From: a virus
Taxonomy: Duplodnaviria; Heunggongvirae; Uroviricota; Caudoviricetes
IMG/VR virus record: IMGVR_UViG_2724679239_000009
Coordinates: 1 to 30,614 of that record
Strand: one strand, 5' to 3'
Length of the DNA: 30,614 nt
Numbering within the stretch: the first letter of the stretch is position 1; each line of letters begins with the position of its first letter. Made by a program: the position numbers and the translations under genes. Positions 15,426-15,763 of the stretch are shown piece after piece. Below the pieces are notes generated by a model. That model was not told the origin of the DNA. It worked only from the letters and a program-made list of their open reading frames with translations, and ran no database searches.

Positions 15426-15603
15426 AAGCACTCTATCCAACAAACCACCCACAGTTAATCGGAATAAAAACAGAGTGCTTATGAATGATCGCCTGCCCGA
15501 AGGTTAGTATTTCTGCACAGCAATTTTGCAAAAAAAGCGATCATTCATAACTTAAACGTCTTTCAGTCACTCCGGGCTTTCCCATCATCGCAGACTGAAA
15601 GAC
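15426..15603 (-). other. Array of three long hairpins between the tRNAs and the holin gene
   Basis: Perfect inverted repeats: aagcactct/agagtgctt (15426-15480), atgaatgatcgc/gcgatcattcat (15481-15548), gtctttcagtc/gactgaaagac (15558-15603). Confidence 0.6.
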
Positions 15604-15609
15604 TCTAAC

Positions 15610-15684
15610 TGGAGCGGGCAGCGGGAATCGAACCCGCATCATCAGCTTGGAAGGCTGAGGTAATAGCCATTATACGATGCCCGC
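15610..15684 (-). tRNA. tRNA-Gly (anticodon UCC)
   Basis: Minus-strand GCGGGCATCGTATAATGGCTATTACCTCAGCCTTCCAAGCTGATGATGCGGGTTCGATTCCCGCTGCCCGCTCCA folds as a cloverleaf: 7-bp acceptor stem, anticodon stem TCAGC/GCTGA, loop CTTCCAA, T-loop TTCGATT, encoded CCA. Confidence 0.9.
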
Positions 15685-15687
15685 ATA

Positions 15688-15763
15688 TGGTGCCGACTAC
15701 CGGAATCGAACTGGTGACCTACTGATTACAAGTCAGTTGCTCTACCTACTGAGCTAAGTCGGC
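15688..15763 (-). tRNA. tRNA-Thr (anticodon UGU)
   Basis: Minus-strand GCCGACTTAGCTCAGTAGGTAGAGCAACTGACTTGTAATCAGTAGGTCACCAGTTCGATTCCGGTAGTCGGCACCA: acceptor GCCGACT/AGTCGGC, anticodon loop CTTGTAA, T-loop TTCGATT, encoded CCA. Lies 3 nt upstream of tRNA-Gly. Confidence 0.9.

Follow-up and report, generated by a model that had tools for sequence, protein, structure and literature searches.

A candidate structured non-coding RNA adjoining the tRNA genes in the late leader of lambdoid prophages

In bacteriophage T4, the species 1 and species 2 RNAs are co-transcribed and processed together with the phage tRNAs, and they are not known to have an assigned function. Host tRNA operons give rise to 3' external transcribed spacer (3'ETS)-leuZ, a trans-acting small RNA (sRNA) that works as a sponge, and, from the tyrT operon, to rtT RNA. 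The GOLLD and ROOL RNAs are often found near tRNAs and in prophages (PMC5737381) and raise the same question as the T4 RNAs, namely what role the stable RNAs that accompany phage tRNA arrays may play. Here we describe an element of three consecutive hairpins (H1, H2 and H3, together referred to as the module, ∼180 nucleotides (nt) in length) that follows two tRNA genes in a stretch of 30,614 nt of viral DNA (Caudoviricetes; IMG/VR record IMGVR_UViG_2724679239_000009, positions 1 to 30,614), which we refer to as the window. All features in this portion of the window, the Q and lysis genes included, are found on the minus strand, and the hairpins are therefore 3' of the tRNAs on that strand, which reverses the left-to-right, plus-strand reading implied in the initial annotation of the locus. 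On balance, we favor an explanation in which the locus is a self-contained stable-RNA unit within the late leader, and in which the hairpins form a new structured non-coding RNA that is transcribed together with the phage tRNAs.

Structure and conservation of the three hairpins

H1 (15558..15603, minus strand) consists of an outer stem of 11 base pairs (bp), conserved internal loops (CUGCGAUGAU / GGAGU), an inner GGG/CCC helix and a variable apical loop. H2 (15479..15550, minus strand), the core of the module, is built from a 14-bp outer stem, an inner 8-bp helix and a small CCUUCGGG hairpin, together with a UUUUUGCAAAAUUGCUGUG block that is almost invariant, and H3 (15426..15480, minus strand) has a 9-bp outer stem, which abuts H2 and encloses an invariant AUCC..AACC..GGGUGGUUUGUUGGAU sequence. 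All three were detected as inverted repeats with perfect arms, located at 15603-15593/15568-15558 for H1 (11 bp, 24-nt loop), 15550-15537/15492-15479 for H2 (14 bp, 44-nt loop) and 15480-15472/15434-15426 for H3 (9 bp, 37-nt loop). The three perfect hairpins noticed initially are thus real, although the stem range given for them at the time, 9-12 bp, slightly understates H2. When the 211-nt region was shuffled 2000 times, no shuffle contained three perfect stems of 9 bp or more (0/2000); a stem of at least 11 bp arose once (1/2000) and one of 14 bp not at all (0/2000). Moreover, the 243-nt RNA folds with a minimum free energy of -78.2 kcal/mol (z = -4.44 relative to dinucleotide shuffles). H1-H3 lack U-tracts, a separate small terminator comes after them, and the three hairpins themselves are non-terminators.

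Covariation was evaluated in an alignment of 17 diverse sequences, which extends to relatives of about 75% identity, using 500 shuffles and structures slid by 1-3 columns as controls. RNAalifold returned 58 pairs, corresponding to the three outer stems and the inner helices. Standard pairing is kept in 97.2% of the cells, compared to 93.3% in the shuffles, none of which attained the observed value (0/500), and changes on both sides of a pair were counted in 49 cells, compared to 19.7 expected (again 0/500 shuffles reaching this number). When the structures were slid, only 40-48% of the cells paired. Nine pairs show compensatory double changes, all within the three outer stems (two in H1, four in H2 and three in H3), as illustrated by the H3 stem variants ACUCU/AGAGU, ACUCC/GGAGU, AUCUC/GAGGU and ACCUU/AAGGU. 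G·U pairs make up 13.4% of the paired cells, and pairing falls from 97.2% on the late-gene strand to 85.0% when the opposite strand is read; this strand specificity argues for an RNA structure on the late-gene strand, and not for a DNA cruciform. Within the hairpins, invariant blocks (CUGCGAUGAUGGG...CCGGAGUGAC in H1 and the above-mentioned sequences of H2 and H3) alternate with hypervariable apical loops, and blocks of 19 nt and 14-16 nt are almost constant across clades that diverge by ∼25% elsewhere. Taken together, these results leave us with little doubt that H1-H3 constitute an RNA structure under selection.

The hairpins are conserved in related prophages. The 290 nt past tRNA-Gly are present in 540/5426 complete E. 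coli genomes (∼10%), almost always with 95-99% identity, and the module also occurs in genomes of five further enterobacterial genera (Shigella, Enterobacter, Citrobacter, Yokenella and Phytobacter), in ∼100 IMG/VR viral contigs (73-100% identity) and in six phage records, two of which are the same HK639 genome (76.6% identity to the window). A covariance model built from H2 and H3, designated R1, matches the window at 15557-15423 with 134 bits and detects one copy per phage. H1 accompanies the other hairpins in most but not all relatives, and four arrangements were encountered: tRNA-Gly followed by H1, H2 and H3; tRNA-Gly followed directly by H2 and H3; H2 and H3 without an adjacent tRNA; and H1 and H2 without H3. 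In HK639, all three hairpins, compensatory changes included, stand behind a tRNA-Gly truncated to its 3' half. The module is combined with four types of Q and with two or more types of holin. In addition, solitary H3-like hairpins, in which the GGGGUGGUUUGUUGG core is invariant and the covarying stems differ considerably, were found with R1 in the IMG/VR contigs L013, L054 and L047. In L013 and L054, which have related Q genes, the lone H3 is placed between the tR'-like terminator and the first late open reading frame (ORF), with neither tRNA nor terminator, and in L047 it is located past Rz. The hairpins therefore behave as separable modules, and these lone and partial sets indicate that the elements belong to the intergenic RNA of late operons in general, their link to tRNA arrays being frequent but not obligatory.

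A particular gene order was observed in the Stx2f-converting phage phi467 (locus L307, LN997803, 1598-4008; described as an Stx2f phage in PMC5189129), in which stx2fA, stx2fB, tRNA-Thr, tRNA-Gly, the three-hairpin module and the holin gene follow one another; the stx2f toxin genes and the RNA unit are thus part of one late leader.

With regard to identity, Rfam 15 yielded no match to the hairpins at gathering thresholds over 15426-15609, and relaxing the search to E values of up to 10 produced no more than snoRNA and sRNA hits at chance level, all with E above 1. At the gathering thresholds, the only Rfam matches in the whole window are the two tRNAs and hok/sok. No tRNA-model hit was obtained inside H1-H3 at E up to 10, the sole nearby tRNA-like hit overlapping tRNA-Gly, and the Rfam families of rtT (RF00391), AgvB, AsxR, Esr41, STnc100 and IsrK gave no significant hit in the window. 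Neither a full-text literature search with the invariant blocks nor searches centered on HK639, prophage sRNAs and put RNA retrieved a match to the hairpin RNA, and the GenBank record of HK639, which annotates promoters, terminators, a putL-like RNA and an M3-like RNA, leaves the three-hairpin element unmarked. Judged by sequence and structure searches, the hairpin RNA is outside every Rfam 15 family and is a candidate new family of enterobacterial lambdoid prophages.

Several individual candidates were considered and rejected. The put RNAs are about 70 nt long, comprise two directly abutting stems and act downstream of early promoters (PMC9378689); R1 is negative in HK022 and at putL of HK639 (34187-34312), and the module has three stems and resides in the late leader after tRNAs. 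Pas sRNAs adjoin the holin operons of pathogenic E. coli (bioRxiv 10.64898/2026.05.13.724894; PMC8550237). For PasA and PasB, BLAST against the E2348/69 loci returned only chance matches, whereas PasC and PasD are ruled out only indirectly, by partial published sequence and a kinship with PasA and STnc100 that has been reported for them; no match to the module was obtained with the fragments published for PasA and PasD1. Only chance matches were likewise obtained by BLAST for the nmpC-essD interval of the K-12 prophage DLP12, in which IpeX is encoded, and svsR belongs to a different locus, the 3' end of cI (PMC12803456). An internal sigma-70 promoter in the H2 loop was discarded on account of its poor motifs, which are unconserved between clades and unlisted by the promoter scan. 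CRP and IHF sites, a G-quadruplex, K-turn or loop-E motifs and a likeness to GcvB or to 16S rRNA helix 44 were noted by eye, lack conservation across the whole family and are not used here.

The predicted transcription unit and its tRNA genes

The interval that contains the module is bounded upstream by the gene for a Q antiterminator of 231 amino acids (16043..16738, minus strand; Pfam PF06323 Phage_antiter_Q, E = 1.5e-85) and downstream by the gene for a class II (S21-type, P21-type) holin (15103..15318, minus strand; Pfam PF04971, E = 8.6e-36), which is the first gene of the lysis cassette and is followed by lysozyme, Rz, HNH and terminase genes. Given this gene order, the 724-nt interval from Q to holin is the late-operon leader of a lambdoid prophage. 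Along the minus strand, the unit within this leader is composed of a promoter, a leader hairpin, tRNA-Thr, tRNA-Gly, H1-H2-H3 and a small terminator, after which comes the S21-type holin gene.

The tRNAs' own promoter had been overlooked in the initial annotation, and so had the promoter and terminator motifs that delimit the unit as a whole. This predicted sigma-70 promoter (15830..15857, minus strand; TTGAAT, 16 nt, TATTAT, then G+C-rich CTCTGCGG) was recovered by the promoter scan with 9/12 matches, and most related arrays carry a better conserved version of it (TTGCAt, 17 nt, TATCAT, then CTCGCTCCC) immediately 5' of the first tRNA. The 57-nt leader hairpin (15767..15823, minus strand; inverted repeat, ΔG -19.6) has a stem of 11 positions with a central tandem G·A/A·G and a 35-nt loop. 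In an L213-type relative, according to our own reading, the leader stem is kept with a compensatory change of C-G to U-A and the loop is unrelated. The leader hairpin may function separately, in processing or in stability.

At its other end, the unit is closed by a small intrinsic terminator (15378..15401, minus strand; CCGC-UUUU-GCGG followed by U6CU4; -6.6 kcal/mol in RNAfold). In the window and its closest relatives this terminator is weakened by GCGGUU in place of GCGGGC. Different clades have unrelated terminator sequences at the same position past H3, and the HK639 record annotates a terminator there. The 3' end as a whole, an A/U-rich single strand and then an intrinsic terminator with a U-tail (...UCCUUGCUGUAUAUAUCGUUUCG-CCGCUUUUGCGG-UUUUUUCUUUU), has the form expected of Hfq-dependent and 3'ETS sRNAs. 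At the motif level, the unit has what characterizes a moron, that is a sigma-70 promoter directly 5' and an intrinsic terminator directly 3', and from promoter to terminator it looks like an autonomous stable-RNA operon inserted in the late leader. From this arrangement of motifs, the hairpin RNA probably belongs to the tRNA transcription unit.

Upstream of the unit, a candidate late promoter PR' (16031..16059, minus strand; TTGCAA, 17 nt, TACATT) was read from the sequence; it is below the threshold of the promoter scan and is not listed there. It is located ∼40 nt upstream of a tR'-like intrinsic terminator (15951..15980, minus strand), an inverted repeat with a 9-bp stem (AAAACCCGC/GCGGGUUUU, 15980-15957) and a U-run (ΔG -15.9 kcal/mol), which would end a short PR' transcript of about 70 nt. 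The terminator scan listed this palindrome in the plus-strand reading only, the minus-strand U-run having been read from the sequence. The same layout is present in the phages L013 and L054, in which Q is related. The initial suggestion that H1-H3 are a tR'-like structure is therefore unsupported, since the tR'-like terminator is this other hairpin further upstream and H1-H3 are devoid of U-tracts. Just 3' of the tR'-like terminator, a Chi site (GCTGGTGG, 15921-15914, minus strand) is embedded in a 40-nt block, GAAAAACGGTACAGGACGTTAAACGCGCTGGTGG, common to four prophages with three different Q genes, and Chi is found at the same place in other arrays.

The two tRNA genes sit between the Q gene and the lysis cassette as initially annotated, the two flanking genes being assigned by Pfam. 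Both tRNA-Thr(UGU) (15688..15763, minus strand) and tRNA-Gly(UCC) (15610..15684, minus strand) were called by ARAGORN and matched Rfam RF00005, with 73.8 and 64.9 bits, respectively (gathering score 29), and they are separated by a spacer of 3 nt (15687-15685). Alignment with E. coli K-12 bears out the proposed match to host isoacceptors over the full length of both genes: tRNA-Thr is identical to thrU (76/76) and tRNA-Gly to glyT (75/75), the flanking sequences show no relationship, and tyrU, which lies between the two genes in the host, is missing. The pair is ordinary, and its RefSeq annotation already exists in related prophages. Codons ACA, GGA and GGG are used 12.9, 15.8 and 19.6 times per 1000 in the late genes of the window, about twice the E. 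coli averages of the Kazusa table (roughly 7, 8 and 11 per 1000), in line with the enrichment of ACA and GGA that had been put forward as a check. Heavy use of the matching codons is the usual rationale for phage tRNAs. The two phage tRNAs add to thrU and glyT, each of which the host has in a single copy, and they would most likely boost decoding of ACA/ACG and GGA/GGG, codons heavily used in phage genes.

Arrays in relatives are larger and highly variable, typically comprising Met/Ile(CAU), a variable second tRNA, Thr and Gly, with Arg(UCU/CCG), Lys(UUU), Asn and others also represented, and the window contains a reduced two-gene version. For the second tRNA, after Met(CAU), ARAGORN often calls an abnormal anticodon loop ('???' with a 2-nt anticodon, Phe-AAA, Leu-UAA or a 'Stop' UUA; loci L112, L071, L160, L194, L060, L141, L167, L178, L021, L205 and L125); this position may be occupied by a decaying tRNA or by a tRNA with an unusual anticodon loop. 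The nearest relative of the region, L002 (E. coli EPSSH018, NZ_CP125889.1), is 99.7-100% identical around it. There, a 78-nt deletion (aligned to window 15705-15628) through the shared T-arm sequence GTTCGATTCC has left a Thr/Gly chimera, made up of the 5' part of tRNA-Thr and the 3' part of tRNA-Gly, at which RefSeq annotates no tRNA. In HK639 (L004, NC_016158, about 44465-44515), what remains of tRNA-Gly before H1 extends from the anticodon loop to CCA, and the same phage carries a tRNA-Asn that is absent from its GenBank annotation.

Elsewhere in the window, in the early region, a type I toxin-antitoxin locus, hok/sok, is indicated by a complete sok antitoxin RNA (20968-21139, minus strand; Rfam RF01794, 107.5 bits), and hokD is annotated in relatives at the equivalent place. 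Among the genomes of the E. coli collection, none matches the window over its whole length.

Proposed role and alternative explanations

If the locus is a self-contained stable-RNA unit, the hairpin RNA and the tRNAs would be transcribed in lysogens from the unit's own promoter, with transcription halted at its own terminator and the holin gene silent, and Q-modified transcription from PR' would read through the unit during lytic growth after induction. The nucleases that mature tRNA-Gly would cut the hairpin RNA free, and this RNA would persist because it starts with a hairpin at its 5' side and ends with the terminator hairpin at its 3' side. The invariant blocks presented by the stems could then be functional surfaces, either of a protein-binding or decoy RNA or of a riboregulator that pairs with RNA. 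That the main role is exerted in trans and not in cis seems to us somewhat less likely than not. A further reading treats each of the three hairpins as an independent, mobile 'non-tRNA gene' of the arrays; the tRNA-processing machinery would cut them from one common precursor, and they would accumulate as stable RNAs and act on the host. This reading seems unlikely; in that case they might be decoys for RNA-targeting defence or processing enzymes, or riboregulators of host genes.

A number of observations weigh against the stable-RNA unit as we propose it. The co-transcription, release and stability of the hairpin RNA are deduced from the DNA letters. The closing terminator is weaker in the window (-6.6 kcal/mol) than in relatives (-13.7 kcal/mol in the L213 type and -13.0 kcal/mol in HK639, all from RNAfold) and could leak transcription from the tRNA promoter into the holin gene. 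Our supposition that the loops are more conserved than the stems turned out to be false on average, as stem-enclosed columns are not more conserved than the stems (0.855 versus 0.863). The inner helices and loops are invariant and thus contribute no covariation, and the covariation that does exist largely separates two main clades, so that it represents fewer independent events than the cell counts suggest. The H3-only copies in late-gene 5' leaders without a terminator fit a role in cis at least as well as one in trans. Finally, duplex predictions (duplexfold, poorly suited to this purpose) yielded no significant pairing of the module with the short PR' RNA, the start region of the holin gene, the tRNA leader or the tRNAs, and complements of the H3 loop elsewhere in the window occur at chance frequency.

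Among the suggestions made initially, an unannotated structured RNA is the one that agrees with the covariation, the strand-specific G·U pairing and the absence of an Rfam family, whereas processing signals, the main rival, are live but not the best fit. According to this rival, to which we assign a real if minor chance, the hairpins act in cis only, as RNase III or RNase E substrates that split the tRNAs from the lysis mRNA, as a block to 3' exonucleases or as a protective hairpin at the 5' end of the mRNA. Their position between the CCA end of a tRNA and the first late gene, with short and A/U-rich linkers, is compatible with such a function, and the same is true for the extended, partly interrupted helices of ∼20-25 bp, which resemble RNase III substrates, for the invariant apical loop of H2 with its AA/AUU, which fits the cleavage preference of RNase E, and for the H3-only copies just mentioned; the leader hairpin, with its kept stem and unconserved loop, shows what a pure processing element would look like. 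However, such hairpins need no long invariant internal sequence, and the 19-nt and 14-16-nt blocks are nevertheless kept. Moreover, HK639 has maintained the module with compensatory changes beside a mere 3' fragment of tRNA-Gly, some copies of the module have no adjacent tRNA at all, and in most relatives a terminator stands between module and holin, so that transcripts from the unit's own promoter would miss the mRNA to be protected. We consider it improbable that the module is a cis-regulatory leader of the lysis cassette, that is an attenuator, a ligand or protein sensor or a put-like antiterminator acting on the terminator before the holin gene, because the hairpins are modular and are associated with several Q and holin types. 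The order of structured RNA, intrinsic terminator, ribosome-binding site and toxic gene would suit such a leader, HK639, whose early operon makes use of put RNA, contains three more terminators from module to holin, and H2 and H3 abut like the two put stems (PMC9378689). On the other hand, the negative R1 results in HK022 and at the putL-like RNA of HK639, together with the size, stem number and early position of put RNAs, speak against kinship with put, and the varying combinations (H1+H2, H2+H3 or H3 alone) are unlike a single aptamer. The module accompanies four types of Q and two or more types of holin, no terminator lies past the H3-only copies, and no obvious alternative pairing with the terminator was seen, although no systematic search was made. 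In addition, terminator-resistant transcripts from the constitutive tRNA promoter would express the holin in lysogens.

Two further explanations are both very improbable in our view. In one of them, the H2 block encodes a micro-peptide, the hairpins being incidental. An ATG-started ORF of 10-26 codons runs in the same frame through TTT TGC AAA ATT GCT GTG in 17/23 diverse variants; in the window it occupies 15546-15502 (minus strand) and reads MNDRFFCKIAVQKY, compared to MGAAFCKIAV in most relatives. We judge it to be non-coding. The ORF is absent or in another frame in the remaining 6/23 variants, the upstream T-run changes in length by numbers that are not multiples of three, and all third-codon positions of the H2 block are invariant, which indicates constraint at the level of the nucleotides rather than the amino acids; furthermore, there is no Shine-Dalgarno sequence 5' of the ATG, which itself lies within the 14-bp stem, and the stems covary. 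In the other, the hairpins are DNA-level features or decaying remnants that are free of selection on RNA, such as degenerate tRNA genes, recombination sites or protein operators. The tRNA array is visibly rearranging, as seen from the chimera of EPSSH018 and the truncated tRNA-Gly of HK639, H2 is of tRNA size (72 nt), and GAUGAUG-GGG is common to H1 and the variable and T-arm region of tRNA-Gly. Against this stand the 97% of pairs kept through compensatory changes, a strand specificity of G·U pairing (97.2% versus 85.0%) that is unlike DNA cruciforms, the absence of tRNA-model hits within H1-H3 at E up to 10, and near-identical copies in six genera.

Whichever role applies, the hairpin RNA is common, being found in about 1 in 10 complete E. 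coli genomes, and it is present on clinically relevant phages, with Stx2f phages carrying it directly before the lysis genes. It provides a tractable E. coli system in which to ask what the small stable RNAs found alongside phage tRNA arrays do. If made in lysogens from the unit's own promoter, it would qualify as a candidate factor of lysogenic conversion; a role in cis would bear on how the lysis genes are silenced and then switched on. Should the hairpins be mobile non-tRNA genes, they would be a temperate-phage counterpart of the T4 species 1 and 2 RNAs, borne by Stx2f-converting phages.

Comparison with known systems

The closest layout to that of the module is found in T4, where rnaD (species 2, 119 nt) and rnaC (species 1, 139 nt) are located 1 and 6 nt, respectively, after the terminal tRNA-Arg of the array and share its strand. 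Apart from this shared layout, R1 and BLAST revealed no homology of sequence or structure, and rnaC and rnaD were therefore rejected as relatives. In addition, rnaC ends in a tRNA-like T-arm, which H1-H3 lack, and T4 is a virulent myovirus, whereas the module is situated in the late leader of temperate lambdoid phages before the lysis genes.

Similar to the host RNAs 3'ETS-leuZ and rtT, the module would be a non-tRNA RNA set free from the 3' portion of a tRNA operon with an intrinsic terminator at its end. 3'ETS-leuZ, which is among the Hfq-bound RNAs of enteropathogenic E. coli (PMC8550237 supplement), is nevertheless about 50 nt long and largely unstructured except for its terminator, unlike the module, and rtT (RF00391) is unmatched here. 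The GOLLD and ROOL RNAs are 3-4 times larger, contain multistem junctions and pseudoknots and belong to other phyla, and they have no Rfam match here; the module, by comparison, consists of three simple extended hairpins and is restricted to Enterobacteriaceae.

Two groups of lambdoid RNAs share individual traits with the module. The put RNAs of HK022 and HK639 are likewise encoded in cis, with neighbouring stem-loops that precede terminators, and they render RNA polymerase terminator-resistant by way of the zinc-binding domain of its β' subunit. Both put and the module are present in HK639, but the two differ in location, size and number of stems. PasA, PasC, PasD, IpeX, StxS, AgvB, AsxR and IsrK, which comprise prophage sRNAs and short PR' transcripts, share with the module the prophage neighbourhood from Q to the lysis genes and, in part, the occurrence in pathogenic E. 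coli, and several of these prophage sRNAs directly adjoin the holin/lysozyme operon (bioRxiv 10.64898/2026.05.13.724894); PasA, unlike the module, is encoded on the strand opposite to the holin gene. By analogy with these systems, the module would appear to be of a known kind, a stable RNA other than a tRNA that is carried along by a tRNA operon, while being a member of no described family.

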